From positions 8,801 through 72,800 of the forward strand of contig CAWDWO010000009.1 in the NCBI GenBank assembly GCA_963806035.1: 64,000 nucleotides of DNA, written 5' to 3'. Under the pieces are notes generated by a model that saw nothing but the letters and a program-made list of their open reading frames with translations, made no database searches and was not told the DNA's origin. The DNA comes from Candidatus Krumholzibacteriota bacterium. Lineage in GTDB: Bacteria; Krumholzibacteriota; Krumholzibacteriia; JAJRXK01. The position numbers were made by a program, and so were the translations under genes. This document shows, piece by piece, positions 36,818-53,323 of the stretch (its first letter is position 1; each line of letters starts with the position of its first letter).

Positions 36818-38308
36818 TCAGCCCCCGAGCAACCAGTGCATCGAGGCGTCCGCGAAGGCCTTCACCGGGCTCCAGTAGAGCCCCAGCACCAGGGTCGGCA
36901 CGGCGAGAACCACCAGAAGCACCATGTGAACCGGCGAAAGCCCCAGGCCCCCCTCGTCTTCAGAATGCTCGAAGAACATGGCTTTGGCGATGCGCATGTA
37001 GTAGTAGAGGCTGATCACGCTGTTGAGGACCGCGATGAACGCCAACCAGCCCATCTGCCCGTCGATCGCCGCCGCGAAGAGGTAGAATTTGGCGATGAAT
37101 CCGAAGGTGGGCGGAATTCCCGCGAGCGAAAGCAAGAAGACCACCATGATGACCGCGAGCAGGGGCTCGCGGAAGCCGATGCCCCGGTACTCGTCGATGT
37201 CCTCGCTGCCCAGGCGGTTGTTGAGCGCGATCACGACCAGGAAGGCGCCCAGATTCATGATGGCGTAGGCGATGAGGTAGAACAGGATGGCGGACAGGCC
37301 GGCCTCGCTCAAGAGCACGAAGCCGATGAGCAAGTAGCCGACGTGCGCGATGGAGGAATAGGCCAGAAGCCTCTTCACGTTCCTCTGACGAATCGCGGCC
37401 AGGTTTCCCCAGGTCATGGTGATCACGCTCAAGAACGCCAGCAGCCATGGCCACTGGATACTCGAGAGCGCCGCCATGGTGCCCGCGCCGTCCGATTGCA
37501 CCAGAGCGGTGTAGAAGAAGCGAATGAGGAGAGCGAAGCCGGCCGCCTTGGGTCCGGCCGCGAAGATCGCGGCCACCGGGGTTGGCGCGCCCTCGTAGAC
37601 GTCCGGCGTCCAGAAGTGGAAGGGCACCGCGGAGATTTTGTACCCGATCCCGGCCAGGATCAAAACGCAAGCGGTGAGGGTAGCCAGTTCGTTGCCCCCG
37701 AACACCAGTCTGTCGTGCAATCCGGTGAAGGACATCGCCCCGCTCAGGCCATAGAGAATGGAGGCGCCGTAGAGCATCAAACCGCTGCTTACCGCGCCCC
37801 AGAGCACGTATTTCAGGGAGGCCTCCGAGGAACGGAGGCTCATGCGGGCGTAGCCGGCCAGAATGTAGCTGGTGATCGAGACCAGCTCGATGGACAGGAC
37901 CAGCATGACGAGGTTGTTGGCCTCGGCCATGACCATCATGCCGAAGCAGAGCACCGCCAGATAGGCGTAGTACTCGCCCTTGTTCTCGCGGTCAGCTCCC
38001 ATGATTTCGCGGCTGCTGAAGCTGAATACGGCCACGATGAGGGTGACGGCCAAAAAGAGCACGCGGAAGAACTGGGCGTAGGGATCGACCACCATCATGG
38101 TCCCCATGATATCGTGCGCCCCGCGCGGCGGATTGGCGACCGCTACCGCGAGCGCCACGACCACGCCCAGAATGAGAACGCTCAGCGTCGCTCCATGACG
38201 GCGTTCACGCGTCAACAAATCCGTCAGCAAGCAGGCCACGAAGGTCAGGGCCATGATTGCCTCGGGCCAGAAGAACGCCGCGTCAGACCAGTTGAAACTC
38301 ACCGTCAT
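36818..38308 (-). CDS. nuoN: NADH-quinone oxidoreductase subunit N
   Basis: 496-aa antiporter-like subunit, last gene of the colinear nuo cluster. Confidence 0.85.
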   Translation of the reverse strand: MTVSFNWSDAAFFWPEAIMALTFVACLLTDLLTRERRHGATLSVLILGVVVALAVAVANPPRGAHDIMGTMMVVDPYAQFFRVLFLAVTLIVAVFSFSSREIMGADRENKGEYYAYLAVLCFGMMVMAEANNLVMLVLSIELVSITSYILAGYARMSLRSSEASLKYVLWGAVSSGLMLYGASILYGLSGAMSFTGLHDRLVFGGNELATLTACVLILAGIGYKISAVPFHFWTPDVYEGAPTPVAAIFAAGPKAAGFALLIRFFYTALVQSDGAGTMAALSSIQWPWLLAFLSVITMTWGNLAAIRQRNVKRLLAYSSIAHVGYLLIGFVLLSEAGLSAILFYLIAYAIMNLGAFLVVIALNNRLGSEDIDEYRGIGFREPLLAVIMVVFLLSLAGIPPTFGFIAKFYLFAAAIDGQMGWLAFIAVLNSVISLYYYMRIAKAMFFEHSEDEGGLGLSPVHMVLLVVLAVPTLVLGLYWSPVKAFADASMHWLLGG

Positions 38309-38311
38309 CTC

Positions 38312-39823
38312 CTAGCCGGGGATCATCCCGATGAGGGTGATGAGCGAAGTCTTGACCATGTTGATGAAGGGCGCCGGATAGACTCCGATGAAGATCACGA
38401 TGGCCGCCAGAGGGATCACCGTGGCCAGCTCGCGAGCGTTGATGTCCGGGATATCGGCGTACTTCTCGTTGAGGGGGCCCAAAAAGACCCTCTGCAACAT
38501 CCACAGCACGTAGGTCGCGCCGATGATGATTCCCACCGCGCTCACCATGGTCACCACGCGGTAGACGGGGAAGGCGCCCAGGAACACCAAGGCCTCGCCC
38601 ACGAAGCCGCTGAGACCCGGCAGGCCCAGAGCCGCGAACAGGGCCAAGCTGAAGACGGTGGTGTAGCGCGGCATCACCGAGCCCAAGCCACCGAAGCCAT
38701 TGATCTCGCGATGATGGGCGCGATCGTAGATGACGCCCACCATGAGGAAGAGCATGGCCGTGATCGTGCCGTGGTTGAACATCTGCAGCATCGCCCCGGT
38801 GATGCCGGCTTCGTTGAACACCGCCATCCCCAAGAGCACGTAGCCCATGTGACTCACCGAGGAATAGGCCACCAGCTTCTTCATGTCCTTCTGCGCCAAG
38901 GCGCAGAAGGCTCCGTAGATGATGTTGATCGCCCCCAGGATGGCCAGGGGCAGGGCGAACCAGCGCACCGCGTCGGGCAGGATGGGAAAGCAGATCCGCA
39001 GCATTCCGTAGGTGCCCATCTTCAGGAGCACCCCGGCGAGGATCACGCTGACCGCGGTGGGCGCCTCGACGTGCGCGTCGGGCAACCATGTGTGGAAGGG
39101 GAAGATCGGCACCTTCACCGCGAATCCGATGAAGAGGAACATGAAGATCAAGTGGCGCACGTTCACGTTCAGAAGCCATGCTCCGTGGTTCACCTGGTTC
39201 ATCATGTAGAGCATGTTGAAGGTGTGCTGCCCGGTGTTGGGATCGCGCACGTTCAGATAGAGCGCGATCATGGCCAAGAGCATCAGCACGGACCCGGCCA
39301 GGGTATACAGGAAGAACTTGATCGCCGCGTACTCGCGACGCGGACCGCCCCAGATGCCGATGAGGAAGTACATCGGGAGCAGCATCACTTCCCAGAACAC
39401 GTAGAAGAGGAAGAAATCGAGCGAGACGAACACTCCCATCATGCCGGTTTCCAACATGAGGAAGAGGGCAAAGTAGCCCTTGGTCGCCTTCTCGATCTTC
39501 CAGCTCGCTCCGATGCACAAGAACGACAGAAGGGCGGTGAGCAGAACCATCGCCACCGAGATGCCGTCCACCCCCACGAAGTAGTCGATGTTGAAGCCAC
39601 GGATCCAGGGGGTCTTCTGCCAGAACTGAATGGCGGAGGTTCCCCGGTCGAAGCTGAACATGAGCTGGATTGCGAGAGCGAGTGGGATGGCAGCGGTCAC
39701 CAAAGCCGTCCATCGATGCGCCGTCTTGTTGTTCGACGGCAACATCACCAGGATGGCCGCGCCCAGAAGCGGCACGAATGTCATCCAGGTCAACAGCGCG
39801 CTGGGGTTCGCGAGTTCGGTCAT
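38312..39823 (-). CDS. nuoM: NADH-quinone oxidoreductase subunit M
   Basis: 503-aa antiporter-like subunit with conserved NuoM motifs. Confidence 0.85.
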   Translation of the reverse strand: MTELANPSALLTWMTFVPLLGAAILVMLPSNNKTAHRWTALVTAAIPLALAIQLMFSFDRGTSAIQFWQKTPWIRGFNIDYFVGVDGISVAMVLLTALLSFLCIGASWKIEKATKGYFALFLMLETGMMGVFVSLDFFLFYVFWEVMLLPMYFLIGIWGGPRREYAAIKFFLYTLAGSVLMLLAMIALYLNVRDPNTGQHTFNMLYMMNQVNHGAWLLNVNVRHLIFMFLFIGFAVKVPIFPFHTWLPDAHVEAPTAVSVILAGVLLKMGTYGMLRICFPILPDAVRWFALPLAILGAINIIYGAFCALAQKDMKKLVAYSSVSHMGYVLLGMAVFNEAGITGAMLQMFNHGTITAMLFLMVGVIYDRAHHREINGFGGLGSVMPRYTTVFSLALFAALGLPGLSGFVGEALVFLGAFPVYRVVTMVSAVGIIIGATYVLWMLQRVFLGPLNEKYADIPDINARELATVIPLAAIVIFIGVYPAPFINMVKTSLITLIGMIPG

Positions 39824-39880
39824 CGGTCGAGTGCTCCTTCATGGGTGGACGGCGCTGCCGTCCGGTTCAGTCGTGCCCCG

Positions 39881-41869
39881 CTACGAGGGCCACGCCACTC
39901 GATACACGAGAATGAGAATTACCAGCCCCGAAATCAGGCCGAGCAAATAGGTTTGAATCCGTCCGGTCTGCAGGCCCCGCAGCGCACTGCCAAAGCTGCG
40001 CAGCAGCTCGCCCGTACCGTTCACCAGTCCGTCGACCACGGCATTGTCGAAAGCGCCGACGAGCCAACCGAGTGCTCGCGTGAAGTAGCCCACGCCATTC
40101 ACGATGCCGTCGACGATCAATTTGTCGAAGCCGGCAACGACCGAGGCCTTGGCCAGAGTTCCGCGAATGACGGTGTCGCGGTAGATCTCGTCGAACCAAT
40201 ACTTGTTCCACAGCAGGCGGTAGGCCCCCGGGAACGCGCGCTGCACGCGGGCACTGTCGATGAGCTTCGCCTTGTAAGTGAGCCAGGAAAGGAGAATCCC
40301 CAGGCCGGCGATGGCGAGCGAGGACCACATCGCAATGATGTGAGCGCTGTGATGCACTCCGTGCTCGGCGGATTCGTGCACGCCGGGATTCATCACGAAG
40401 CGGTGGAACCAGGCGGATCCCTGTGCGGTGAGCCCTCCCGCGACGACGGCGAGCGCCGCCAGCACCATGAGCGGAATCGCCATGCTCATGCCGACTTCGT
40501 GCGCGTGATCATACTTCTTCTCGTTGCGCGGCTTGCCGGTGAAGGTCATGAAGACGATGCGGAACATGTAGAAGGAGGTGAATCCGGCCGCGAGCAGTGA
40601 CATTGCAAAGGGCAGCCAGTGAACCGGGTGCTCCATCCCGAAGGCGAGCGCCGCGGCCAGAATGGCGTCCTTGGAATAGAAGCCCGAGAACGGCGGCACC
40701 CCGGAGATGGCCAGGGTGGCCAGGAGGAAAGTGGCGAAAGTGATGGGGAGCTTGTGCCTCAGTCCACCCATCTCGCGCATGTCCTGTTCGTGGTGCATGG
40801 CGTGGATGACCGCCCCACTCCCCAAGAACAAAAGGGCCTTGAAGAAGGCGTGGGTGGTCAGGTGGAACATTCCCGCGAAGACACCGCCCACGCCCACCGC
40901 CATCACCATGTATCCCAGCTGGCTGATGGTCGAGTAGGCCAGGCCGCGCTTGATGTCGGTCTGCACCACCGCCACCGTCGCCGCCCCCAATGCGGTGATC
41001 GCTCCCACGTAAATGATGAAGAGCAGCGCGCTAGGGGTGAACAGGGGGAAGAGCCGCGCGATCATGTACACGCCGGCCGCGACCATGGTGGCGGCGTGGA
41101 TGAGCGCGGAGACCGGAGTGGGGCCCTCCATCGCGTCGGGCAGCCAGATGTGCAGCGGAACCTGCGCGCTCTTGCCGATGCACCCCATGAAGAGCAGAAC
41201 CCCGGCCGCGGTCAAAAGGCCGCCCGAGAGCACTCCGCTGTGCACGCTCTCGAAGATGTGGGTGTAGCCAAAACTACCTGTCGTCGTGAAGAAGATCAAA
41301 ATCCCCAGCCAGAATCCGTAGTCGCCCACCCGATTGACCAAAAATGCCTTTTTCCCCGCATTGGCCGCCGAGGGTTTCTTGAAAAAGAAACCGATGAGGA
41401 GGTAGCTGGCCAAACCCACCAGCTCCCAGAAGATGTACAGGAAGAAGACATTGTTGCTGAGCACGATGCCCAGCATGGCGAAAGTGAACCAGCCCAAAAA
41501 CGCGAAGTATCGCGCGTAGCGTTCGTCGCCCTTCATGTACCCCATCGAGAAGACATGCACCCAGAAGGAGATGGTGGTGACCACCACCAGCATGATGGAT
41601 GTCATGCCGTCGACCAGGATGCCCGCGTCCACGTGGAAGCGCGCGATCTTGAACCAGGTCCAGCTCGCTTCGATTTTGTAGGCAGGATCGTCCAGGGCCC
41701 AGAAGTGGAAGAAGATGCGCAGCGAGAGGATCCAGGCGATGGCGAGCGCGGTCACTCCGATGAAATCACCGCGCCGCGGCAGCTTCTCCCCCAGGAAAAA
41801 GGTGAGAAGGTAACTGAGCAGCGGGAGCCCCAGGATGACGAGCGCCATTGTGATGATTTGTTGGTCCAC
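39881..41869 (-). CDS. nuoL: NADH-quinone oxidoreductase subunit L
   Basis: 662-aa subunit with the long C-terminal extension typical of NuoL. Confidence 0.85.
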   Translation of the reverse strand: MDQQIITMALVILGLPLLSYLLTFFLGEKLPRRGDFIGVTALAIAWILSLRIFFHFWALDDPAYKIEASWTWFKIARFHVDAGILVDGMTSIMLVVVTTISFWVHVFSMGYMKGDERYARYFAFLGWFTFAMLGIVLSNNVFFLYIFWELVGLASYLLIGFFFKKPSAANAGKKAFLVNRVGDYGFWLGILIFFTTTGSFGYTHIFESVHSGVLSGGLLTAAGVLLFMGCIGKSAQVPLHIWLPDAMEGPTPVSALIHAATMVAAGVYMIARLFPLFTPSALLFIIYVGAITALGAATVAVVQTDIKRGLAYSTISQLGYMVMAVGVGGVFAGMFHLTTHAFFKALLFLGSGAVIHAMHHEQDMREMGGLRHKLPITFATFLLATLAISGVPPFSGFYSKDAILAAALAFGMEHPVHWLPFAMSLLAAGFTSFYMFRIVFMTFTGKPRNEKKYDHAHEVGMSMAIPLMVLAALAVVAGGLTAQGSAWFHRFVMNPGVHESAEHGVHHSAHIIAMWSSLAIAGLGILLSWLTYKAKLIDSARVQRAFPGAYRLLWNKYWFDEIYRDTVIRGTLAKASVVAGFDKLIVDGIVNGVGYFTRALGWLVGAFDNAVVDGLVNGTGELLRSFGSALRGLQTGRIQTYLLGLISGLVILILVYRVAWPS

Positions 41870-41880
41870 GGCCTGCGCCC

Positions 41881-42192
41881 CTAGTGCCTGAGACGGTCCA
41901 CTTGCTCCACGTGGACGGTCTGAAAGTTACGAAAGATGGCCAAGACGATGGCCAAGGCAACCGCCGCTTCCGCCGCGGCCAAGACGATGATGAAAATGGT
42001 CATGAGCTGACCGCTCAGGTCCGCCGCGCCATACCTTCCGAAGGCCACGAAATTGAGCGCGGCCGAGTTCAGGATGAGTTCGACGCCCATGAGCATGACG
42101 ATGGCATTGCGGCGGCTCATCACGATGAACAGACCGAGTGCGAAGAGGATCGCCCCCAAAGTCAGATAGTGGACGAGGCCCACGTGCATCAC
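41881..42192 (-). CDS. nuoK: NADH-quinone oxidoreductase subunit K
   Basis: 103-aa, 3-TM protein with the conserved NuoK glutamate-containing helices. Confidence 0.85.
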   Translation of the reverse strand: MMHVGLVHYLTLGAILFALGLFIVMSRRNAIVMLMGVELILNSAALNFVAFGRYGAADLSGQLMTIFIIVLAAAEAAVALAIVLAIFRNFQTVHVEQVDRLRH

Positions 42193-42698
42193 CGGGTATC
42201 CTCCTTGTCTCGCTTTTCACGAATGATCATGGCGGCGCCGATCATCGCCACCAGCAAGAGGATGCTGGTGAACTCGAAGGGGAAGAGATACTGCGTCAGG
42301 ATCTTCTGCCCGAGGGCGGCCGTGGTGGGTTGCGACTCGCCGAGTGTCGCCAGAGGCCACGCGGTCCGAAAGATGGTCAGAAGCATCAGGGCCAGTACCA
42401 CGGCGGACACCGCCAGAGCCGGGACGGGCTGAACGAGTTCGTCGTGCAACTTCGTGCTCATGATGCGGTTGGTCATCATGACCGCGAAGAGCACGAGGAC
42501 GAGGATGCCTCCCACGTAGACGACGATTTGAGTGATGGCCAAGAAGTCGGCGCCCAGAAAGAGGTACATGGCGCAGACACCCAAAAGCGCGAAGAGCAGC
42601 GACATCCCGCTGTGGACGACCGAGCGGCTGAAGGCGACGACCAGGCCGGCGGCGACGGTGATCGCGGCGAAGAGATACCAGATGAGATCTCCGGTCAC
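42189..42698 (-). CDS. nuoJ: NADH-quinone oxidoreductase subunit J
   Basis: A GTG start at 42698 with a GGGGGAG RBS. It overlaps the nuoI stop by 4 nt. NuoJ-like TM pattern. Confidence 0.75.
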   Translation of the reverse strand: MTGDLIWYLFAAITVAAGLVVAFSRSVVHSGMSLLFALLGVCAMYLFLGADFLAITQIVVYVGGILVLVLFAVMMTNRIMSTKLHDELVQPVPALAVSAVVLALMLLTIFRTAWPLATLGESQPTTAALGQKILTQYLFPFEFTSILLLVAMIGAAMIIREKRDKEDTR

Positions 42699-43201
42699 TG
42701 CTCTCCCCCTTCGACTTTCGTAGCGGAAGAAGCGGCGGGAGCCGAAGCGGCGTCCTCGTCCTTCTTCTTGGGTTCCTTGGGAATCTTGTAGGGCACCACG
42801 GGCTCGTCGACGTACTCGTACACCAGCCGGCTGCGCTTGTAGAGCGAGTGGTCGTAGTCGTGGCTCATCGTGATGCAGTTGGTCGGGCAGGGCTCGGTGC
42901 ACAGAGAGCACCAGATGCATTTGTTGTAGTCGATCGCGAAGCGCGACATCGTCTTCTCTTTGCCCTTGCCCTCCATCTCGATGTAGATGCAATCGACCGG
43001 ACAGGCCTTGGCGCAAAGCTGGCACGCCGTACAGCGCGGCACGTCGTTGTGAACGAAGCCCCGGAAACGTTCCGGCAGCGACCAGCGTTCGTCGGGGAAC
43101 TGCTGCGTCACCGGTTTCTTGAAGAAGTACTTGATGGTGATCCGCATGCCCTTGGCGATCGAGCTCAGGCTTCGCTGGATGTCACCGGCTAATTTCACCA
43201 C
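42695..43201 (-). CDS. nuoI: NADH-quinone oxidoreductase subunit I (2x[4Fe-4S] ferredoxin)
   Basis: Two CxxCxxCxxxCP motifs (CTACQLCAKACP, CIWCSLCTEPCP). Confidence 0.85.
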   Translation of the reverse strand: MVKLAGDIQRSLSSIAKGMRITIKYFFKKPVTQQFPDERWSLPERFRGFVHNDVPRCTACQLCAKACPVDCIYIEMEGKGKEKTMSRFAIDYNKCIWCSLCTEPCPTNCITMSHDYDHSLYKRSRLVYEYVDEPVVPYKIPKEPKKKDEDAASAPAASSATKVEGGEQ

Positions 43202-43231
43202 TTCGTCCTCGCTTGAGGCGCCTGCGCGCGC

Positions 43232-44278
43232 CTAGAACAAGACTTTCAAAAGACCAAAGACCAAGAGCAACACCAACACGATGGGAAGGAGCACCTTCCA
43301 ACACACCGACATCAGTTGGTCCACCCGCAGGCGCGGCAGGGTCCAGCGCAGCCACATCTGCAAGAACACCACGAGCACGCTCTTGCCCACGAAAATTACT
43401 GGCGCGGGAATGACGCGATCCAGCGCCGGCACGCCGGAATTCCAGCCGCCCAAGAAGACGGCCACCGCGATGGCCGCCACCGCGAACATGTCCGCGTACT
43501 CGCCCAGCATGAAGAAGGCGAATTTCATCCCCGTGTACTCGGTGTGGTATCCCGCCACCAGCTCCGATTCGGATTCCGGCAAGTCGAAAGGAATCCGGTT
43601 GACCTCGGCCAGAGAGGCGATGAGGTAGATCACGAAGCTCAAGAGCAGAAGAGGATGAAAAACGTGCCACTGCCAGATCCAACCGCTCTGGGCCTGGGTG
43701 ATGACGCCCAGGTTCAAGCTGCCGGTGGTCATCACCACGGGAATCACCGCCAAAGCCAGCGGAATCTCGTAGGAGACGACCTGGGCCGCTCCGCGCATCG
43801 CTCCGTAGAGGGCCCACTTGTTGTTGCTGCCCCAGCCCGCCATGATGATTCCGATGACGACCAGACTGCTGGTGGCGAAGGCGTAGAAGAGCCCCACGTC
43901 CAACTTCGCGCCCACGAAGCTCGGACCGAAGGGAAGCACCACGAAGGTGAGGAAAGCTCCGGTGAAACAGACCACCGGCGCGGCTCGCCACAGAATCTTG
44001 TCTGCGCTGGCGGGCGCGATATCCTCCTTGAGCAGAAACTTGATCCCATCGGCGATCGGCTGGAGGATGCCGTGCCAGTGCCCCACGTACATCGGGCCGT
44101 AGCGGGATTGCATGAAACCGGCGACCTTCCGCTCCGCCAGGCTGAAGATCATCACCGCGACGGCGACGCCGGCCAAAATGATCACCGCGATCGTGAGCAT
44201 CGCCATGCCCTGAAGGAGCGGCTGCGGCCATCCCGCGAAGATCCCCATGCTCTTGAACGCTGCGTAGAAGAATTCCAA
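43232..44278 (-). CDS. nuoH: NADH-quinone oxidoreductase subunit H
   Basis: 348-aa polytopic subunit with NuoH-family conserved regions. Confidence 0.85.
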   Translation of the reverse strand: MEFFYAAFKSMGIFAGWPQPLLQGMAMLTIAVIILAGVAVAVMIFSLAERKVAGFMQSRYGPMYVGHWHGILQPIADGIKFLLKEDIAPASADKILWRAAPVVCFTGAFLTFVVLPFGPSFVGAKLDVGLFYAFATSSLVVIGIIMAGWGSNNKWALYGAMRGAAQVVSYEIPLALAVIPVVMTTGSLNLGVITQAQSGWIWQWHVFHPLLLLSFVIYLIASLAEVNRIPFDLPESESELVAGYHTEYTGMKFAFFMLGEYADMFAVAAIAVAVFLGGWNSGVPALDRVIPAPVIFVGKSVLVVFLQMWLRWTLPRLRVDQLMSVCWKVLLPIVLVLLLVFGLLKVLF

Positions 44279-44326
44279 GGCTGCCTTCGTCTCCTCTTTG
44301 CCCGGACCCGAGGGTCCCGCGGGCGC

Positions 44327-45520
44327 CTATCGGTCGATCTCTCCCAAGACCAGATCCAGGGACCCCACGGTGGCCACGAGGTCGGAGATCATCTGACCTC
44401 GGCCCACTTTCTCGATGACGCTCAAGTTGTGAATCGATGGGCTGCGCGTCTTGCAGCGGAACGGCACCGTCCCCCCGTCCGAAACGATCCAAAAGCCGAG
44501 TTCGCCCTTCGGGTTCTCCGCGCGGAAGTAGATTTCGCCGGGGGGAATCTTGAGGTTCTTGGGCATCTCCGCCATCACCTCGCCGCGCTTGGGCATTTGC
44601 TCGATGGCCTGGGCGACGATGCGGGTGGACTGTTCCATTTCATCCATACGCACTTTGTACCGATCCCAGCAGTCGCCCACCGTTCCCATCTTGCCGCTGC
44701 CCACCGCCGTCTCGAAATCGAAGCGGTCGTAGATGCTGTAGGGCTCGTCTTTCCTCAGATCGAAATTGACTCCGGCGCCGCGAAGCACGGGACCGCTGCA
44801 TCCGTAGTCGATGGCGTCCTGTCGATTGATCACGCCGACTCTCGCGGTGCGCTGGATGAAGATCTCGTTGGTGGAGAGTAGAGTGTCGTACTCCTTCAGC
44901 TTCTTGGGGAACATCTCCACGAAGAGTTTGATCTCCTCCATGGCATCGTCGGGGATGTCCCACTTCACTCCGCCCACGTCGTAGTAGGTATACATGAGGC
45001 GCGCGCCGCAGATTTTCTCGAAGATGTTGAGTATGGCCTCGCGCTCTCGAATGGCGTGGAGGAAGGGCGTGAATGCGCCGATGTCCAGACCATAGGTTCC
45101 GAAGGCGATGAGATGGCTCGCGATACGGTTGAGCTCGCCCACGATCACCCGCACGTATTCCGCATACTCGGGGATGACGACTTCCATCTCCGTCTCGCGC
45201 ATCAAGGCCTCGACCGCAAGACAGTAGGTCCAGTTGCAGTTCATGGCCGCGAGGTAGTCCATGCGGTCGGTGTAGAGCACGTACTGATGGTAGGTGTTTC
45301 CCTCGGCGATCTTCTCCGCGCAGCGGTGCAAATACCCCAGGTAGGGAACCACTTCGTTGACGATCTCTCCGTCGGTGGTGACGAAGAGTCGCAGCACCCC
45401 GTGAGTCGCCGGGTGCTGGGGACCCATGTTGATGTGCAGGAGCTGACTCTTCAGCGGCCGCGCCGTGTCATCGCTGCGCTCGACGGCCAGCTTGGTCGTG
45501 TCGCTCGGGTTGCGCGTCAT
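44327..45520 (-). CDS. nuoD: NADH-quinone oxidoreductase subunit D (49 kDa)
   Basis: NMGPQHPATHGVLRL signature near the N-terminus. 397 aa. Confidence 0.85.
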   Translation of the reverse strand: MTRNPSDTTKLAVERSDDTARPLKSQLLHINMGPQHPATHGVLRLFVTTDGEIVNEVVPYLGYLHRCAEKIAEGNTYHQYVLYTDRMDYLAAMNCNWTYCLAVEALMRETEMEVVIPEYAEYVRVIVGELNRIASHLIAFGTYGLDIGAFTPFLHAIREREAILNIFEKICGARLMYTYYDVGGVKWDIPDDAMEEIKLFVEMFPKKLKEYDTLLSTNEIFIQRTARVGVINRQDAIDYGCSGPVLRGAGVNFDLRKDEPYSIYDRFDFETAVGSGKMGTVGDCWDRYKVRMDEMEQSTRIVAQAIEQMPKRGEVMAEMPKNLKIPPGEIYFRAENPKGELGFWIVSDGGTVPFRCKTRSPSIHNLSVIEKVGRGQMISDLVATVGSLDLVLGEIDR

Positions 45521-46116
45521 TCCTCTTCCGCCCCCCTCTTCTCACGAACCGCCAATGGGAGACCTTCCAGGGGCACCCCCTGCCACTCCTTGGGCATCTG
45601 ATAGTCTTTGCGAAGGGGCCAGCCCTCCCAGTCCTCGGGCAAGAGGAGCCGGCGCAGGTCCGGATGTCCTTCGAACTCGATCCCGTACATGTCGTAGGCC
45701 TCGCGCTCGTGCCAGAGAGCGGTGGGCCAGACCGAACTCACGCTGGCGACTTTGGGATTCTCGCGGCTGACCCTGACCTTCAGAACGAAACGTTCGCGCG
45801 CGCTGAGATTTTCCAGGTGATAGGACATTCCCAAGTTCCCGGTGGCCGGCTCCACGACCGGCTGGACCTTGCCGTCCTCGCTGTACTGCGCGATTGCCCG
45901 GTGCTTGCCGCGGCCTTTTTCATCCCAGCCTTCGAAGTCGATTCCGGCCGCGATGAGCAGGCGGTCGAAGCCCAGCTCCTCGCGCAGCACCCGCGCGACC
46001 TCACGCATGCGCGAAGCATCGATTTCCAGGTAGGGTTCGCCCAAATCGAATTCGCTGCTCAATACCGCTTTGGGGCAGCGCTTCTCGATGAGTTCTCGGA
46101 TTTCCGCAGGCGACAT
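45517..46116 (-). CDS. nuoC: NADH-quinone oxidoreductase subunit C (30 kDa)
   Basis: The internal ATG at 46116 begins MSPAEIRELIEKRCP. A conserved ERExxDMYGI motif is present. There is a 4-nt ATGA overlap with nuoD. Confidence 0.8.
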   Translation of the reverse strand: MSPAEIRELIEKRCPKAVLSSEFDLGEPYLEIDASRMREVARVLREELGFDRLLIAAGIDFEGWDEKGRGKHRAIAQYSEDGKVQPVVEPATGNLGMSYHLENLSARERFVLKVRVSRENPKVASVSSVWPTALWHEREAYDMYGIEFEGHPDLRRLLLPEDWEGWPLRKDYQMPKEWQGVPLEGLPLAVREKRGAEEE

Positions 46117-46141
46117 TGAGTTCGCTCCAAGATCTTCGCGA

Positions 46142-46774
46142 TCAATCGGGGATGGTGGTGATGTACTGATCGACCCACTTCGGCTTGCGCCACTTGCCCT
46201 TCTTCCCGCGGATCTTGTCCTGCAGGCGCATGAGGCCGTCGAGCAGTACTTCGGGGCGCGGAGGACATCCCGGGACGTACACGTCGACCGGCACCATGAG
46301 ATCGACACCCTTCACCACGTGGTAGCCGTACTTGAAGTAAGGTCCGCCGCCGATCGCGCAGCTTCCCATGGCGATGACCCACTTGGGATCGGGCATCTGG
46401 TCGTAGAGGCGCTTGATTCGCAGCGCCATCTTGGCCGTCACCGTTCCCGAGACGATCATCAAATCGGTTTGCCGCGGAGTGCCGCGCATGGCGCCCGCGC
46501 CGAATCGATCCATGTCGTAGCGCGTGCCCGCGGCCGACATCATCTCGATCGCGCAGCAGGCCAACCCGAAGGTCATGGGCCAGATGCTCCACAGGCGCGC
46601 CCAGCGAAACAACTCGTCCACCTTGCCCAGCATCACGTTGGAGGGCCCTGGCTCGGAAACGTCCTTCAAGTCCTCGTCGATCTTGAAGTCGAGCATGTGC
46701 TCCCACTTGGCGGGATCGCGCTCGATGTGGGGACCCTGCAGCCAAACCGGAGCCTTGGATTCATCCGACATCAC
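46142..46774 (-). CDS. nuoB: NADH-quinone oxidoreductase subunit B (20 kDa, N2 cluster)
   Basis: The CCAIEMM...GSCA...C PGCPP cysteine pattern of NuoB. It starts immediately after the nuoA stop. Confidence 0.85.
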
Positions 46775-47335
46775 TCACACCCCCTCCGGCTTGGCGCTCT
46801 TGTGGGCCGAGTGCGCATCGGCGGGATACTGCCCCGAGCTGTACCAGGAGAGGGATTCCACCTCGTCCTCGTCGCGGGGCGCCAGGCTTTTCACCCAGGC
46901 CAGGTCGCCCTTGGCCCAGACGTAGGCCAGACCGACCAGGAGGATGGCCACGAAGAGCACCATCTCCCAAAACACGAAGCTGCCCATCTGGGCCAGCATG
47001 TCCTTGAAGACCACGGCCCAGGGCAGAAGGAAGACCACCTCGACGTCGAATACGATGAAGAAGAGGGCCACCAGGTAGAAGCGCACGTTGAAGCGAACCC
47101 AGGGAGATCCCTCCGGAACTTCACCGCACTCATAGGCCATTTCGTCTTTGCGCGAACGCACGCGCGGCCGCAGCGCCCAGGAGATCGCCAGGGTGATGAC
47201 GGCGAAGCCCACCGAGAGCGCGAGAAAGACCAGAACGGTTGCGAAGCGACTGAGCACCTTGATCGTTCCTTTGGACGGGCTCCTCAGCAGATTGCGCGAG
47301 AATCGGACCCGCGTCCCCTCGAGGAGAGCATCCAT
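46775..47335 (-). CDS. nuoA: NADH-quinone oxidoreductase subunit A (with about 40-aa C-terminal extension)
   Basis: The core YECGEVPEGSPWVRFNVRFYLVALFFIVFDVEVVFLLPWAV matches NuoA. The start codon choice is uncertain and the C-terminal tail goes beyond the usual length. Confidence 0.75.
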   Translation of the reverse strand: MDALLEGTRVRFSRNLLRSPSKGTIKVLSRFATVLVFLALSVGFAVITLAISWALRPRVRSRKDEMAYECGEVPEGSPWVRFNVRFYLVALFFIVFDVEVVFLLPWAVVFKDMLAQMGSFVFWEMVLFVAILLVGLAYVWAKGDLAWVKSLAPRDEDEVESLSWYSSGQYPADAHSAHKSAKPEGV

Positions 47336-47365
47336 ATAGAGCCCGCTTGCGAACTCAAGTCAAGC

Positions 47366-47383
47366 ATGCATGAGCATCCATGC
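47366..47383. promoter_or_regulatory. inverted repeat TGCATG-N6-CATGCA 30-50 nt upstream of nuoA
   Basis: Read directly in sequence. It lies in the nuoA/arsR divergent intergenic region. Confidence 0.25.
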
Positions 47384-47416
47384 AAGCCGGGCCAAAACCC
47401 CTGGATCGCGCCAGTC

Positions 47417-47442
47417 AATTCGACTACCATCAAATCGTCGAA
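47417..47442. promoter_or_regulatory. inverted repeat ATTCGAC-N12-GTCGAAT about 110 nt upstream of the ArsR-family gene
   Basis: Perfect 7-bp arms. A candidate operator in the divergent promoter region. Confidence 0.3.
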
Positions 47443-47549
47443 TCGAAGCCGGGGGCGGCGGGCGAAACGGGTCTCTTCTGGCCCGCTACCAGGCCCGCTG
47501 CCAATGCCCGCTCAATGATAGAAGCGCGCAGCCCGAGGCCAAGCCCGCG

Positions 47550-48128
47550 ATGAACCCCAAGGGCGAAATGCAATTCCTCACCGAGGCCCTGCGGGTCCTC
47601 AACGAGCCCGCACGGCTGAAAATGGTGGGCCTTTTGGCCATGCGCCCGCGCTATGGCGAGGAGCTGGCGGAGATTCTCGAGCTTTCCCCGGCCACGATCT
47701 CGCACCATCTGCGGCGTCTGCGAGAGGGCAAACTCATCCGCTCGGTCAAGGAGCCGCCCTACATTCGCTATGAATTGCTGCCCGAGGTGCTCCCGCGCCT
47801 GGGCCAGCTCCTGGAAAGGGCCGGGGAGTGGGCCGCCGCCTTCGGGCTTCCCAGCGAGGAAGTGCTGACCCAGCAGGCCCTGCGCGGCGTGCTGGACGAG
47901 GAGGGGCGCGTGACCCGGCTTCCCCGGTCGCCGCGCCACCGTACGCTGGTGCTGCGCTGGATCGTCCTGCGCTTTCAGTCGGGGAGGATCTACCCTCAGC
48001 GCGAGGTGCGACGCATCCTGATGGAGGTGTGCCGCGACGAGGAGGACGTGCTGCGGGAACTGGTGGCGCGCGGCTGGCTGCAGCAGAAGGGCGGGGTGAT
48101 GCGCCGCACCGAGGAGGTCCCCGCATGA
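47550..48128 (+). CDS. ArsR/SmtB-family HTH transcriptional regulator with C-terminal DUF2087-like domain
   Basis: The N-terminal ALRVLNEPARLKMVGLL...ELAEILELSPATISHHLRRLRE matches the ArsR winged helix. The start is placed at the ATG at 47550. Confidence 0.7.
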   Translation: MNPKGEMQFLTEALRVLNEPARLKMVGLLAMRPRYGEELAEILELSPATISHHLRRLREGKLIRSVKEPPYIRYELLPEVLPRLGQLLERAGEWAAAFGLPSEEVLTQQALRGVLDEEGRVTRLPRSPRHRTLVLRWIVLRFQSGRIYPQREVRRILMEVCRDEEDVLRELVARGWLQQKGGVMRRTEEVPA

Positions 48129-48544
48129 TCCGGGTCGTTGCGGTGGGAAAGCTCAAGGCGCGCTACTACCGCGAGGCGGTGGCGGAGTACGAACGACGCA
48201 TTCGTCGCTTCGCACGCGTGCAGCTGCTCGAAGTCCCCGATCGCGAGCCGCAGAGCGAGGGCCAGAGCCTGCTGGCGGCGGCCCGGGGAGAACCCCTGGT
48301 GGCGCTGGACGTGCGGGGAGAAGCCTGGGACACGCCCGCATTCGCGCGCTTCTTGAGCCACAACGCCAGCCCGTGCTTTCTGGTGGGCGGGCCGGACGGA
48401 CTGAGCCAGGAGCTGCTGCGCGGTGTCGCCCGGCGCCTCAGCCTCAGCCCTCTCACCCTTCCCCACGAACTGGCCCGCCTCGTCCTCACAGAGCAAATCT
48501 ACCGCGCTCTGACTATCCTGAAAGGACACCCCTACCACCGCTGA
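48125..48544 (+). CDS. rlmH: 23S rRNA (pseudouridine1915-N3)-methyltransferase (SPOUT)
   Basis: MIRVVAVGKLK...YYREAVAEYERRI N-terminus and 139-aa length typical of RlmH. The ATGA overlaps the arsR-family stop. Confidence 0.8.
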   Translation: MIRVVAVGKLKARYYREAVAEYERRIRRFARVQLLEVPDREPQSEGQSLLAAARGEPLVALDVRGEAWDTPAFARFLSHNASPCFLVGGPDGLSQELLRGVARRLSLSPLTLPHELARLVLTEQIYRALTILKGHPYHR

Positions 48545-48600
48545 GCGCGCCCCCCCGCGCCCTATCCTTCAGCCTCAAGCCCTGAAGGCCGGAGATCCCC

Positions 48601-48912
48601 ATGGAGAAGCCCTACCGCTATCACCTCCTTCCCTGCGCGGGACCCCGCTGCGGCGCCAAAACCGGCGAGCGTTTCAAGCGCCAGCTGAAGGAGCTTTTGC
48701 CCGATCGCAAGGCCCTCGGGGTGCGGATCAGCACCACCAGCTGCCAGGGACTCTGCGAGCACGGCCCCAACCTCTGCGTATACCCCGAAGGCGTTGTCTA
48801 CCACCGACTTGGCCCCGAGGATCTGCCACGCATCGTGGACGAGCACATCCGCGGCGGCTGTCCGGTGCGCGAGATCATGGCGCGCCGTGGCGAGGACCCC
48901 AAAGACGAGTGA
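48601..48912 (+). CDS. thioredoxin-like [2Fe-2S] ferredoxin (NuoE-like fold)
   Basis: Cys pattern C12-x4-C17 ... C48-x3-C52 (PCAGPRCG ... TSCQGLCEHG) in a 103-aa protein. Confidence 0.6.
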   Translation: MEKPYRYHLLPCAGPRCGAKTGERFKRQLKELLPDRKALGVRISTTSCQGLCEHGPNLCVYPEGVVYHRLGPEDLPRIVDEHIRGGCPVREIMARRGEDPKDE

Positions 48913-49140: not shown

Positions 49141-50832
49141 TTGTTCGATTCAGAATCAAGACCTCACCGCGCCAAGCGGAGGGCCACTTTGGGGGCCAAG
49201 GGAATCTTGCTCGCTCTGGGCGCGCTCCTGCTTTGGGGGCTTTCCGCGGGTTGCCACGATGCCGCGCGCCAGATCGCGCCCAAACCCAAGAAGGTGATCC
49301 ACGACGGAGGCACCTTCCGCCTCGCCCAGGCTTCGCCGCGAAATCTGGATCCGGCGCGGCTGGAGAGCGTTTACGAGAGCACGGTCGTCAACCAGATCTT
49401 CGACGGCCTCGTCGCCTTCGACGAGAACCTCAATACCGTGCCCTCCCTGGCGGAAAGCTGGACGATTTCCCAGGACGGCACCGTCTACACCTTCCACATC
49501 AAACACGGCGTTCACTTTCACGACGGAAGCGAAGTCACCGCCAACGACTTCGCGTATTCGATCACGCGGACCTTCCAACTGCCCGAGGACCAGACCGAAC
49601 TGGCCAGGGAGTACCTCTCGCACATCAAGGGCACCGACGAGTTCGCCAAACGAAAGGTCGATCACATCACGGGCATCGAGGTGCTTTCCCCCTACGAGGT
49701 TCGCATCACTCTCAAGCGCCCCTTCGCCGCGTTCCTCATGGTTCTGGCCATGGACTGCGGTAAGGTGGTCCCCAAGCACTACGTCATGAGTATGGGCACT
49801 GAGGAATTCGGGCGGCATCCGGTCGGCGCCGGTCCCTTCGTGTTCGAGAAGTGGGTGCAGGATGAGGAAATCGTTCTCACCGCCTTCGACGACTACCATC
49901 TGGGCCGCGCGCACCTGGATTCCCTGGTGTTCGAAACGCCCAAGAACGACCGGCGCGATTACGCCACCAACGCCTTCCTGCGCACCCAGCTGGATCTTCT
50001 GGAGGTGCAGCCGGGTCAGGTCGACGATCTGGAGCAGCGCGCGGGAATCAAGCTCACCTCGCGCCAGGAGCTGAGCCTCACCTTCCTGGCCCTGAATCTG
50101 GAAAAGAAACCCTTCGACGACCGCAGGGTCCGCCAGGCCTTCGCCATGGCGGTGGACCGCAAAAACCTCTTCGGCACCCACGATTCCTCGCGCATGGTGC
50201 CCTGCGGCATTCTCCCGCCGGGCATGCCGGGCTATACCCGCATCTCCAAGCTGCTCCCTCACGACCACCATCGCGCGATGGAGCTGCTGGCAGAAGCCGG
50301 CTACCCCGATGGCAAGGGCCTTCCTCCCATCGAGCTCGTCACCGGGGATCAATCCGCGCAGGCCACCGTGTTCTATGCCAAGTTGGCGAGCGAGCTGGCC
50401 GAGGTGGGCTTCAAGGTCACCAACGAGCATCTGAGCTGGCTCGATTTCTTCTCCCGCCTCAAGGCGGGCGACGGCGGTTGTTTCACCCTGAATTGGGTCG
50501 CGGACATCCCCGACCCGGATTCGTTCCTCTATCCGTTATTCCATAGCCACGGCGCCACCAACTACGTGCACTACAAAAACGAGAACGTGGACGAGCTGCT
50601 CGACGCGGGCCGCCGCGCACGTTCCTCGCTCGATCGCCTGCAGGTCTATCGCGAAGCGGAACAGATGATCGTGGAAGATGCACCCATGGTGCCGCTGTTC
50701 CACACCGTGACGATTCTCGCGGCGCGTGACCAGGTCAAAGGTCTCGATCTGACTCCGATGGGAATCGGTAATCTCAACCTCAGGAAGGTCTGGTTCGAGC
50801 CGGTCCAGGTGGCGCAAGGAGCGGGGCAGTGA
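49141..50832 (+). CDS. ABC-type substrate-binding protein, family 5 (peptide/nickel/opine type), lipoprotein
   Basis: Signal peptide plus LSAGC lipobox, and a 563-aa SBP_bac_5-like sequence. The start codon is uncertain. Confidence 0.75.
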   Translation: MFDSESRPHRAKRRATLGAKGILLALGALLLWGLSAGCHDAARQIAPKPKKVIHDGGTFRLAQASPRNLDPARLESVYESTVVNQIFDGLVAFDENLNTVPSLAESWTISQDGTVYTFHIKHGVHFHDGSEVTANDFAYSITRTFQLPEDQTELAREYLSHIKGTDEFAKRKVDHITGIEVLSPYEVRITLKRPFAAFLMVLAMDCGKVVPKHYVMSMGTEEFGRHPVGAGPFVFEKWVQDEEIVLTAFDDYHLGRAHLDSLVFETPKNDRRDYATNAFLRTQLDLLEVQPGQVDDLEQRAGIKLTSRQELSLTFLALNLEKKPFDDRRVRQAFAMAVDRKNLFGTHDSSRMVPCGILPPGMPGYTRISKLLPHDHHRAMELLAEAGYPDGKGLPPIELVTGDQSAQATVFYAKLASELAEVGFKVTNEHLSWLDFFSRLKAGDGGCFTLNWVADIPDPDSFLYPLFHSHGATNYVHYKNENVDELLDAGRRARSSLDRLQVYREAEQMIVEDAPMVPLFHTVTILAARDQVKGLDLTPMGIGNLNLRKVWFEPVQVAQGAGQ

Positions 50833-52931
50833 TCAAGGATATCCGTAAACGATTCGCCTGGGATCGCAGGCAAATGAGGATGCAGACCAGGTTCATGGCC
50901 TACTTTGGCGCCGTGGTCGTAATGCTCATGACCTGCGTGATCCTGCTGATGGAGACGCGGCAATCCAACACCATGCTGCGGCAAACCGAGATTCGCGGCG
51001 CGGCGGTCGCGCACTCGATCGCCTCGGTGGTTCTGCAGAGTCTCTACGAGTACGACTACGTCTATCTGCAACAGGCGGCCGAGACGGCGGCGCGCGACGA
51101 GGGCGTGGCCTACGTGATCATCCTGGACAAGGAAGGCACGGTCGCCGCCTATAGCGGTCACCCCGAACGCGTGGGCCACCCTCCGGTGGATCCCTACAGC
51201 CGGCAGGTGGAGAAGGCCAACGAGCAGGTGATCAACCGCATCCACCGCCGACTCGACGGCGGGGTGGACGAGTCGCTCCTGGACATCGCGGTGCCGGTTC
51301 GCTCGGCGCAGGGCGGAGTGAAGTGGGGAACCATTCGCATCGGACTCTCGCTGCGCGCGATGAGCGCGGAGCTCGCGCGAACCCGCACCCTCTTGGTGGC
51401 TCTGGGATTGGGAGCGATCATGATCGTTCTGATCTCGGTGCGTTTCTTCTCGCGCCAGATCACCCAGCCCCTGGAGCAACTCGCCAGCGCAACCGCGACG
51501 GTGGCCAGCGGGAATCTCGAGCACGCCGTGAACGAGGACATCGTGGGAGAACTGGGAGACCTCGCCCACAGCTTCAACAAGATGACCAACGACTTGAAGC
51601 GCAGCCGCGACGCCATCCGCTACCAGAACCATCATCTGGAGAACATGGTGCAAGAGCGCACCGCGGCGCTGCGCGAGAAGGCGCGCGAGCTGGAGCGCGC
51701 GAACACCGAACTCAAGGAGCTCGACCGTCTCAAGAGCGACTTTCTCAGCAACGTCAGCCACGAGCTCAGGACTCCCCTGACCTCCATCCGCAGCTTCACC
51801 GAGATCCTGCTCGACCGGTCCGTTTCGGTCGAGGACGAGCAGCGGAGAGAGTTCCTGGAGATCATCTCCAGCCAGTCCGAGCGCTTGACCCGCTTGATCA
51901 GTGACCTGCTCGACCTCAGCAAAATCGAAGCGGGAGAGTTCCGCTGTCATCTGCAGAGTCTGGACCTGGAAGACGTGGTCCACCCCGTACTGGAGACCTT
52001 GCAGAGGCTGGCCGAGGAAAACGACATCGAGTTGGTCAACGAAGTCGGCGACGACTCCCCCACGGTCCTGGCGGACTTCGACCGGCTCAGTCAGGTCATC
52101 ACCAACCTGGTCGGCAATTCGCTGAAGTTCACCGATTCGGGCGGCACCATCACCGTCAGCGCGAAGGTTCACGACCACCGTCGCGGCGACTCGTGGAAGA
52201 AAATGGATTTCGCGGGCATGGAGGCCGACGCCCCCGAAGCAAAACAATATCTCATCGTCAGCGTCGAGGACACCGGCTGCGGCATCAAGCCCGAGGATCA
52301 AAAGCGAATCTTCGAGAAATTCGGCCAGGTGGGAAACGTCCTCACCGACAAACCCAAGGGAACCGGGCTCGGACTCACGATTTGCGGGACGATCATCGTG
52401 CACCATGGCGGTGCGCTCTGGGTCGAGAGCGAAGAGGGCAAGGGAAGCCGCTTCTCGTTCTCGCTGCCCGTGGTAACTCACACCTTCGAGACGGAGGATC
52501 CGAATCTCGAGAGTGACGAAGTTCGGGCCGCCGAAGAAGCGCAGAACATCCTGGCCGACGCCGTGCAACGCAGCGCGGTGGGGCCCAGACTTCTGGTGGT
52601 GGACGACGAACCTTCGGTGGTGAGTGCGATTTCACGCTTCCTGGAACCGCGCGGTTACGACAGCGTGGGCTGCTACAGTGGTGACGGCGCCCTGCACATG
52701 GCGCGCGAGATGAAACCCGATGCGATCCTCTTGGACATCCTGCTGCCCGATCGCAACGGTTTCGATGTGTTGAAGGACTTGAAATCCTCCAGGGATACCA
52801 AGGACATCCCCGTCATAGTCGTCTCTGGGCTCGACGACTCGAATACGGCTTACGAATTGGGCGCGGCGGAGTACATTCGCAAGCCGTTCGACATGGTTTC
52901 ACTTTTGGACAACGTGAGGGCCCTAGCATGA
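50829..52931 (+). CDS. hybrid sensor histidine kinase (two TM helices flanking a ~150-aa periplasmic domain, HAMP, HisKA, HATPase, C-terminal receiver)
   Basis: H-box SHELRTPLTSI, N/G boxes, and the C-terminal LLVVDDEPSV...DAILLDILLPDRNGFDV receiver. It overlaps the SBP stop by 4 nt. Confidence 0.8.
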   Translation: MIKDIRKRFAWDRRQMRMQTRFMAYFGAVVVMLMTCVILLMETRQSNTMLRQTEIRGAAVAHSIASVVLQSLYEYDYVYLQQAAETAARDEGVAYVIILDKEGTVAAYSGHPERVGHPPVDPYSRQVEKANEQVINRIHRRLDGGVDESLLDIAVPVRSAQGGVKWGTIRIGLSLRAMSAELARTRTLLVALGLGAIMIVLISVRFFSRQITQPLEQLASATATVASGNLEHAVNEDIVGELGDLAHSFNKMTNDLKRSRDAIRYQNHHLENMVQERTAALREKARELERANTELKELDRLKSDFLSNVSHELRTPLTSIRSFTEILLDRSVSVEDEQRREFLEIISSQSERLTRLISDLLDLSKIEAGEFRCHLQSLDLEDVVHPVLETLQRLAEENDIELVNEVGDDSPTVLADFDRLSQVITNLVGNSLKFTDSGGTITVSAKVHDHRRGDSWKKMDFAGMEADAPEAKQYLIVSVEDTGCGIKPEDQKRIFEKFGQVGNVLTDKPKGTGLGLTICGTIIVHHGGALWVESEEGKGSRFSFSLPVVTHTFETEDPNLESDEVRAAEEAQNILADAVQRSAVGPRLLVVDDEPSVVSAISRFLEPRGYDSVGCYSGDGALHMAREMKPDAILLDILLPDRNGFDVLKDLKSSRDTKDIPVIVVSGLDDSNTAYELGAAEYIRKPFDMVSLLDNVRALA

Positions 52932-53323
52932 GCACCAACCAGGAACCCTACATTCTGGTAGCGGACGATGATGCTCTCGTCTTGAAATCGCTGCAGTTCA
53001 TCTTGCAGGGAGCGGGCTATCGCGTGGTCACGGTGGCTGACGGCGCCGCGGCTTTCGAACAATTGCACATCGAGAAGCCCAGGTTGGCGCTCCTGGACGT
53101 GATGATGCCGCACCTCAACGGGCTCGACCTCTGCCGGCGCATCAAGAACGACGATTCCTTGCGGGACATCACCGTCTTTCTGGTCACCGCCAGGGCCATG
53201 ACCGCCGAGCGCGAGCGCGGTCTCCAGGCGGGCGCCGACGAATACATCACCAAGCCCTTCAGCAATCGCGACATCATCGACAAGGTCGCCGAAGTGCTCT
53301 CTCCCAGCGAGAGCTCCAAGTAG
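52928..53323 (+). CDS. single-domain response regulator (CheY-like receiver)
   Basis: ILVADDDALV...LALLDVMMPHLNGLD...TKPF. Overlaps the kinase stop by 4 nt. Confidence 0.8.
   Translation: MSTNQEPYILVADDDALVLKSLQFILQGAGYRVVTVADGAAAFEQLHIEKPRLALLDVMMPHLNGLDLCRRIKNDDSLRDITVFLVTARAMTAERERGLQAGADEYITKPFSNRDIIDKVAEVLSPSESSK

Follow-up and report, generated by a model that had tools for sequence, protein, structure and literature searches.

An eleven-subunit complex I-like gene cluster without nuoE, nuoF and nuoG in a Candidatus Krumholzibacteriota genome segment

Introduction

Complex I-like enzymes made of 11 subunits and lacking NuoEFG are widespread in bacteria and archaea, and no designated partner for electron delivery has been found for them (PMC3144371, Moparthi & Hagerhall 2011). 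Partial nuo operons whose products use flavodoxin, F420H2 or ferredoxin have been reviewed (PMC4453560) and, for the 11-subunit enzyme of Desulfitobacterium hafniense, a model with ferredoxin as the electron source has been put forward (PMC11238625); the donor of the bacterial enzymes is still debated (PMC3144371, PMC11238625). The literature consulted on Krumholzibacteriota consists of general metabolic inventories only and has nothing on complex I subunit composition. Here we describe a nuo gene cluster and a nearby ferredoxin gene, fdx, within a stretch of 64,000 nucleotides (nt) from a Candidatus Krumholzibacteriota bacterium (assembly GCA_963806035.1, contig CAWDWO010000009.1, positions 8,801-72,800 of the forward strand), referred to as the window. 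Judged from its sequence, the nuo locus would encode a complex I-like enzyme of 11 subunits that is membrane-bound, proton-pumping and quinone-reducing and has no flavin/NADH module (N-module) of its own, a reading to which we assign a probability of about 0.75.

Related loci were collected by querying species-representative genomes with the NuoD sequence, which returned 80 loci of ~21 kb each (designated L001 and so on). All window proteins were mapped onto these loci with tblastn and the flanks were read up to ~10 kb from nuoD. The eight best-scoring NuoD loci, each from a species representative, belong to metagenome-assembled genomes (MAGs) of Krumholzibacteriota. The window is ~90% identical in DNA sequence to L007 (MFD05684.bin.2.283, a Krumholzibacteriota MAG) and 83% identical to L001. 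One window protein carries a type IX secretion sorting domain, which fits the FCB group.

Results and Discussion

The nuo operon

Eleven consecutive minus-strand genes in the order nuoA-B-C-D-H-I-J-K-L-M-N occupy positions 36818-47257, or 36818-47335 if a more distal nuoA start is used. The original prediction had described this cluster from the sequence, with 48 nt between nuoD and nuoH, and it was borne out in gene order, in coordinates and in the nuoD-nuoH spacing, which is exactly 48 nt. All 11 subunits match their Pfam families strongly, with E-values from 1e-26 to 1e-113, so that chance matches are of no concern, and the products of nuoB, nuoC, nuoD, nuoH and nuoI score above the cutoffs of the corresponding NCBIfam models. 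The remaining intergenic gaps are 57 nt or shorter, which leaves no space for a further gene within the operon.

Three of the genes encode antiporter-like subunits, namely nuoN (36818-38308, 496 amino acids (aa); Pfam Proton_antipo_M, E=2e-74), nuoM (38312-39823, 503 aa; Proton_antipo_M, E=3e-78, and Oxidored_q5_N) and nuoL (39881-41869, 662 aa; Proton_antipo_M, E=9e-83, and Proton_antipo_N, E=1e-18). They are preceded in the direction of transcription by nuoK (41881-42192, 103 aa; Oxidored_q2, E=2e-26), in which both membrane glutamates are visible in the sequence (GVELIL and AAAEAA), and by nuoJ (42189-42698; Oxidored_q3, E=9e-36). The mechanical open reading frame (ORF) of nuoJ extends to 43025. 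A start at GTG 42698 gives 169 aa, relatives' NuoJ being called at 165-211 aa; this codon has a GGGGGAG motif upstream and gives a 4-nt overlap with the nuoI stop. The subunit with two [4Fe-4S] clusters is encoded by nuoI (42695-43201, 168 aa; Fer4 families and TIGR01971 NuoI, 113.6 bits, above cutoff), which follows nuoH (43232-44278, 348 aa; NADHdh, E=1e-113; NF004741 NuoH, 349 bits, above cutoff). The quinone-site subunit is the product of nuoD (44327-45520, 397 aa; Complex1_49kDa, E=9e-94). The remaining genes are nuoC (45517-46116, 199 aa from ATG 46116 in an ORF that reaches 46308; Complex1_30kDa, E=2e-39, and TIGR01961), nuoB for the N2-cluster subunit (46142-46774, 210 aa; Oxidored_q6, E=9e-28; NF005012, 238 bits) and nuoA (46775-47257, 160 aa from GTG 47257; Oxidored_q4, E=2e-34).

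The start codons of nuoJ, nuoC and nuoA, as well as those of the arsR (ATG 47550) and rlmH (ATG 48125) genes described below, were chosen from the in-frame candidates, the lengths called in relatives and a conserved promoter-like pair. For nuoA, GTG 47257 is the more likely start over ATG 47335, which would give 186 aa, because NuoA of relatives is called at 156-165 aa, because the region upstream of the GTG is not conserved in L001 and because the conserved promoter-like -10 element overlaps ATG 47335.

The residues expected of a complex I-type quinone module were then located by alignment. The best match of NuoD in the PDB is Nqo4 of Thermus thermophilus (2.5e-99), with mitochondrial 49-kDa subunits also among the best-aligned, and the quinone-site equivalents of Nqo4 His38 (in HPATHGVLRL) and Tyr87 (in TDRMDYL) align. 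The N2-cluster ligands are intact in NuoB, where CCAIEMM, GSCA and GCPP align to PSST/Nqo6, and the N6a/N6b ligands are intact in NuoI, in which both CxxCxxCxxxCP motifs are found (CTACQLCAKACP and CIWCSLCTEPCP). It is the presence of 11 core subunits in a tight operon, the N2 and NuoI ligands, the NuoD histidine and tyrosine and the three antiporter-like subunits that argues for a complex I-type enzyme. Hydrogenase-type large subunits are far weaker matches to NuoD (MbhL 3e-46; HycE of formate hydrogenlyase 8e-30), and a group-4 hydrogenase or Mbh/Ech-type complex was ruled out by this comparison.

Absence of nuoEFG from the nuo loci of the NuoD clade

In order to look for the N-module, ~50 coding-like ORFs of the window were picked by codon-position GC content and scanned against Pfam; none matched NuoE, NuoF or NuoG, the Complex1_51K family included. 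Six-frame translation of the window likewise contained neither the NuoF FMN motif (GGxGFPxGxK) nor the N3-cluster motif (SCGxCxPCR). That the 64 kb hold no nuoE, nuoF or nuoG had been stated in the original prediction, which had also assigned the locus to the known kind of complex I-like enzyme with 11 subunits and no N-module, and both statements hold: the architecture is typical of the NuoD clade, and enzymes of this kind, fed by ferredoxin or by other donors than NADH, are called widespread in the literature (PMC3144371, PMC11238625, PMC4453560).

Among the related loci, nuoH follows nuoD within 15-1930 nt in all 77 that have both genes, a distance far too short for nuoEFG to lie between them. 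The NuoF motif is present in none of the 80 loci, that is, within ~10 kb of nuoD. A canonical 14-subunit NDH-1, with a NuoF carrying the FMN/NADH site together with NuoE and NuoG, is thus seen neither in the window nor in the flanks of the 80 loci. Judged by tblastn, the order nuoA-B-C-D-H-I-J-K-L-M-N is kept in Krumholzibacteriota, Poribacteria, Planctomycetota and Omnitrophota and also in some MAGs from archaea. Since nuoD and nuoH adjoin in 77 of 77 loci and the NuoF motif occurs in 0 of 80, the layout without nuoEFG is, on these sequence comparisons, a constant trait throughout the NuoD clade and no recent deletion or assembly artefact. The absence of the three genes from the 64 kb and the nuoD-nuoH adjacency throughout the clade are what the assignment to a type without N-module is based on.

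Two loci differ in gene content. An Actinomycetes MAG (L079:3551-15622) has the rearranged order nuoB-C-D-I-A-H-K-L-M-L-N with two NuoL-like genes, and a Deltaproteobacteria contig (L069:3067-5620) holds nuoB-C-D-I only.

Relation to described enzymes

The locus shares with the known 11-subunit enzymes (PMC3144371, PMC11238625) its gene set and order, with nuoD followed directly by nuoH and no N-module, a complex I-type NuoD with an intact quinone site and the lack of a designated partner gene within the operon. It differs in its host, Krumholzibacteriota not being among the hosts in the cited literature on 11-subunit enzymes, in phylum-specific extensions of NuoA, NuoB and NuoI, and in a conserved divergent arsR/DUF2087-rlmH(-fdx) operon that adjoins nuo.

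Cyanobacterial and plastid NDH-1 likewise consist of 11 homologous core subunits without NuoEFG. The best solved relative of NuoI is cyanobacterial NdhI (5e-30, versus 3e-23 for Nqo9 of T. thermophilus) and NuoA matches NdhC equally well, whereas NuoD and NuoB are nearer to the T. thermophilus and mitochondrial subunits. In contrast to cyanobacterial NDH-1, the genes here form a single operon and the host is a non-phototroph. None of the NdhL-NdhV accessory families, including the ferredoxin-binding NdhS, was found among the ~50 Pfam-scanned ORFs, which were of ~80 aa or longer, and the operon has no room for them. An overall affinity to cyanobacterial NDH-1 was rejected, NuoI being the only subunit nearest its cyanobacterial homologue.

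Fpo, the F420H2 dehydrogenase of methanogens, resembles the locus in its 11-subunit core, which in the form lacking FpoF can use ferredoxin as its electron source (summarised in PMC4453560). It differs in that the subunits encoded here, from a bacterial host, fall far below the Fpo model cutoffs: the NCBIfam FpoC, FpoD, FpoH and FpoI models gave 87-325 bits against cutoffs of 180-600 (for FpoD, 325 against 600). Neither an FpoF-like ORF nor FpoO was found in the window.

The ferredoxin gene

The fdx gene lies on the plus strand at 48601-48912, 56 nt after rlmH, and encodes a stand-alone protein of 103 aa. Its cysteines are arranged as C12-x4-C17...C48-x3-C52 and these four are invariant in 25 orthologues, among which C59 and C87 are not conserved; the ORF is the only match to C-x4-C...C-x3-C-P in the six-frame translation of the window. 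Sequence matches in the PDB are to HydB-type N-terminal domains (7t2r_B, 2e-15; 7q4v_B, 7e-13), Aquifex Fd4 (2e-12) and Azotobacter vinelandii FeSI. An AlphaFold model (pLDDT 92.2, pTM 0.84) was submitted to Foldseek, where the HydB N-terminus (7q4v_B), Fd4 (1m2a) and FeSI (5abr) ranked first, followed by NuoE/NDUFV2 and the equivalent subunits of formate dehydrogenase, Nfn and HydABC; the matches to the first three and to NuoE chains have probability 1.00, with TM scores of 0.72-0.76. By modelled fold and four cysteine ligands the product is thus a divergent thioredoxin-like [2Fe-2S] ferredoxin, predicted to bind a [2Fe-2S] cluster and to transfer electrons.

The fold is common to Aquifex aeolicus Fd4, A. 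vinelandii FeSI, the HydB N-terminus and the C-terminal domain of NuoE/NDUFV2, and the cysteine spacing is identical to that of the HydB N-terminus and NuoE. Unlike the known thioredoxin-like ferredoxins, the protein is a stand-alone one of 103 aa that stays below the thresholds of curated families (PF01257, 18.5 against a gathering threshold of 24.8; NCBIfam fdxn_Clost, 43.7 against 150, and fdxn_Azotob, 39.6 against 195) and belongs to a narrow orthologue group. A profile search gave ~55 clusters in this group, and all that were examined lie on contigs of Krumholzibacteriota type. A [2Fe-2S] ferredoxin with the NuoE fold had been anticipated for this ORF, and the structural matches and invariant cysteines uphold it, with the HydB N-terminus and Fd4 nearer than NuoE. 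The same prediction placed the gene upstream of nuo after arsR and rlmH; the position is correct, but the gene is on the opposite strand and outside the nuo transcription unit.

The divergent operon and the intergenic region

A regulator with an ArsR-family helix-turn-helix and a DUF2087 domain is encoded at 47550-48128 on the plus strand, divergent from nuoA (192 aa; HTH_5, E=5e-11; DUF2087, E=1e-12; NF033788), and adjoins nuoA in all eight Krumholzibacteriota species representatives. It overlaps by 4 nt with rlmH (48125-48544, plus strand, 139 aa), which encodes the 23S rRNA m3-pseudouridine1915 methyltransferase (SPOUT_MTase, E=1e-40), its product scoring below the cutoffs of the RlmH equivalog models. 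The gap of 56 nt between rlmH and fdx narrows to 2-23 nt in some relatives. From this arrangement arsR/DUF2087-rlmH-fdx is read as a separate, divergent transcription unit with fdx as its last gene.

Between the two operons a promoter-like pair, TTGAC...TATAT, faces nuoA on the minus strand (47334-47363) and consists of invariant columns in an intergenic alignment of five species; it is put forward as a putative nuoA promoter by inference only. Promoter and terminator scans of the nuo operon gave results no better than chance. A palindrome, TTCGAC-N12-GTCGAA, is located at 47419-47442. Of 16 Krumholzibacteriota loci, 8 contain its degenerate motif a single time, at the nuoA-arsR position, and one more has it there with one mismatch; the other loci, 1.47 Mb in all, contain it only 15 times. 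The palindrome is a candidate for the operator at which the ArsR/DUF2087 regulator would act.

Downstream of fdx, at 49141-53323, lie genes for a solute-binding protein (SBP_bac_5), for a hybrid sensor kinase with the domains sCache_3_2-HAMP-HisKA-HATPase-REC and for a response regulator, and this group is conserved next to nuo in all Krumholzibacteriota loci. In many relatives, namely L003-L006, L081-L083 and L087-L091, the interval from fdx to the SBP5 gene contains a small Cys-rich DUF971/GBBH-like_N gene (for example L088:8505-8822, minus strand). It is present in L005, which has no fdx, and absent from the window, L001, L002, L007, L008 and L084.

Subunit extensions

Alignment of NuoA to each solved NuoA, ND3 or NdhC stops at residue 121-131 of 160, leaving ~39 (29-39) residues unmatched, and the tail has no counterpart in the NCBIfam profile either. 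It comprises residues 122-160 (46778-46894, minus strand), is acidic and predicted to be cytoplasmic, and carries a motif, L-x-P-R-[DE]-x2-[DE]-x3-LS, that is conserved in all Krumholzibacteriota loci, the tail being short or absent in other phyla. The ~40-aa C-terminal extension noted for NuoA in the original prediction is thereby confirmed as ~39 aa beyond all solved homologues and as a phylum-conserved feature. In NuoB an extension of ~45 aa is conserved at the N-terminus and a tail is present at the C-terminus, both of them phylum-specific as well. At the C-terminus of NuoI a Lys-rich PKxxKK segment is followed by an Ala/Pro/Glu-rich tail of low complexity that spans 20-90 aa in relatives and is conserved across Krumholzibacteriota. 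In all three subunits the extensions are specific to the phylum and probably serve to decorate or to stabilise the peripheral arm. We checked whether they covary with the presence of fdx across the loci and no covariation was found. NuoI of Poribacteria (L010:12676-13326 and L013:12559-13167) has an insertion of ~70-90 aa between the two 4Fe-4S motifs.

Electron donor and alternative explanations

In an 11-subunit enzyme without N-module, electrons from a soluble low-potential carrier would enter at the exposed NuoI cluster, by analogy with cyanobacterial NDH-1, Fpo without FpoF and the Desulfitobacterium enzyme, and quinone would be reduced at the NuoD/NuoB/NuoH site. The carrier would most likely be a ferredoxin reduced by 2-oxoacid:ferredoxin oxidoreductases. 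A Krumholzibacteria MAG is reported to encode korAB/porABC and several terminal oxidases (PMC7914226), which would provide a source of reduced ferredoxin and a sink for quinol. In the window, an ADP-forming acetyl-CoA synthetase-type protein (175-2430; ATP-grasp_5, CoA_binding_2 and Succ_CoA_lig) suggests substrate-level ATP formation from acyl-CoA, which fits a metabolism based on 2-oxoacid:ferredoxin oxidoreduction. Several points weigh against this reading. The electron donor is assigned by analogy only. NuoA, NuoB and NuoD show no preference for the cyanobacterial enzyme, NuoI alone being closest to it, and therefore no specific affinity is claimed to what is the sole bacterial 11-subunit enzyme with an established donor. 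NuoE, NuoF and NuoG are quite often encoded outside the typical nuo operon (PMC3144371), and the visible part of the genome amounts to 64 kb, beyond which a detached nuoEFG or a partner of the Hox/Fds/Hnd type could lie. The last two points would favour a split 14-subunit enzyme, in which a nuoEFG set at another genomic locus docks on this quinone module to give a normal NADH:quinone oxidoreductase. A precedent exists in one genome where a single nuoEFG set serves two nuoA-N sets (PMC4453560), and NuoD and NuoB match 14-subunit enzymes (T. thermophilus, mitochondria) slightly better than NDH-1. We nevertheless consider a split enzyme unlikely: the adjacency of nuoD and nuoH in 77 of 77 loci from at least five phyla, together with the lack of the NuoF motif within ~10 kb in 80 of 80, points to an ancient and stable architecture without nuoEFG and not to a recent split, NuoI has more in common with NdhI, and genes annotated as 'nuoEFG' in organisms with an 11-subunit enzyme proved to be part of formate dehydrogenase (PMC11238625). 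The complex might also run in reverse, with the proton-motive force driving electrons from quinol to ferredoxin for the reductive tricarboxylic acid cycle or for lithotrophic growth, for example on Fe(II). In principle complex I can work in either direction (PMC4453560), and cyc2, korAB and porABC have been reported from a Krumholzibacteria MAG as marker genes for iron oxidation and for the reverse tricarboxylic acid cycle (PMC7914226). The window, however, has no pointer to lithotrophy or carbon fixation and codes for functions in the uptake and degradation of peptides and amino acids along with the ADP-forming acetyl-CoA synthetase, and direction cannot be read from sequence, so we regard reverse operation as very unlikely.

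A further explanation concerns the donor itself. The ferredoxin of 48601-48912 could be a dedicated electron-input protein or a loosely bound twelfth subunit whose expression is coupled to that of nuo by the common divergent promoter region and the ArsR/DUF2087 regulator. A functional link to the complex was implied in the original prediction. All seven orthologues looked up (55-73% identity) sit at exactly this spot beside an 11-subunit operon. The 2-23 nt that separate rlmH from fdx in some relatives place fdx in an operon headed by a regulator that faces nuoA, the palindrome between the two operons is conserved, and the ferredoxin fold is that of NuoE and the HydB N-terminal domain, which serve as modules for electron transfer in the complex I/HydABC superfamily. 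Yet the gene is transcribed divergently, behind the regulator and the housekeeping rlmH, and it is absent in three of the eight Krumholzibacteriota species representatives (L002, L005 and L008), all of which retain the nuo operon, the regulator and rlmH. In ~70 loci from other phyla, no ferredoxin homologue was detected up to 10 kb from the operon. Three homologues at 32-38% identity, looked up after a profile search, are all in unrelated contexts, which rules out a ferredoxin-nuo linkage as a general rule. Moreover, the whole block of nuo and arsR-rlmH-fdx-(DUF971)-SBP5-histidine kinase-response regulator-Vut_1 is syntenic in the orthologue contigs and the constant position of fdx therefore carries little information. 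Acidity is typical of ferredoxins docking on complex I-like enzymes, whereas this one is more basic than acidic (18 K/R against 15 D/E, counted by eye), and the extensions of NuoI, NuoB and NuoA do not vary with the presence of fdx. On the distribution seen in these genomes the gene is lineage-specific and dispensable. Co-regulation with nuo as an input protein or twelfth subunit is thus doubtful, and the functional link that had been implied is not sustained; it is conceivable but unsupported, and we rate it as improbable. Equally improbable is the fuller scheme in which the ferredoxin would be the designated input protein, jointly controlled with nuo through ArsR/DUF2087 and the palindrome and docking on an arm remodelled by the NuoA, NuoB and NuoI extensions. 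If it were true, Krumholzibacteriota would have a designated electron-input protein, for which the 2011 survey found no case among 11-subunit complexes.

With a complex I-like enzyme of 11 subunits and no N-module as the preferred reading, the locus adds an uncultured phylum of the FCB group to the carriers of such enzymes and places it within a large NuoD clade across which the architecture without nuoEFG is fixed. It offers one weak candidate partner, the thioredoxin-like ferredoxin, and a candidate regulator and operator. By itself it leaves existing knowledge unchanged. It represents a known kind of enzyme in a little-studied phylum with modest lineage-specific decorations. In genome annotation, these nuo genes are not to be taken as evidence of an NADH-dependent complex I in Krumholzibacteriota.

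Other features of the window

An SbcC-like (979 aa, AAA_23/AAA_27) and an SbcD-like (Metallophos) gene form a pair at 19709-23844. In the SbcC-like protein the short sequence VHADDAP is repeated in tandem, in two copies, and the protein coincides with a strong local excursion in AT skew. Two long coding-like ORFs, at 60977-63706 (909 aa) and 58689-60029 (446 aa), have no Pfam match at E<=0.01.

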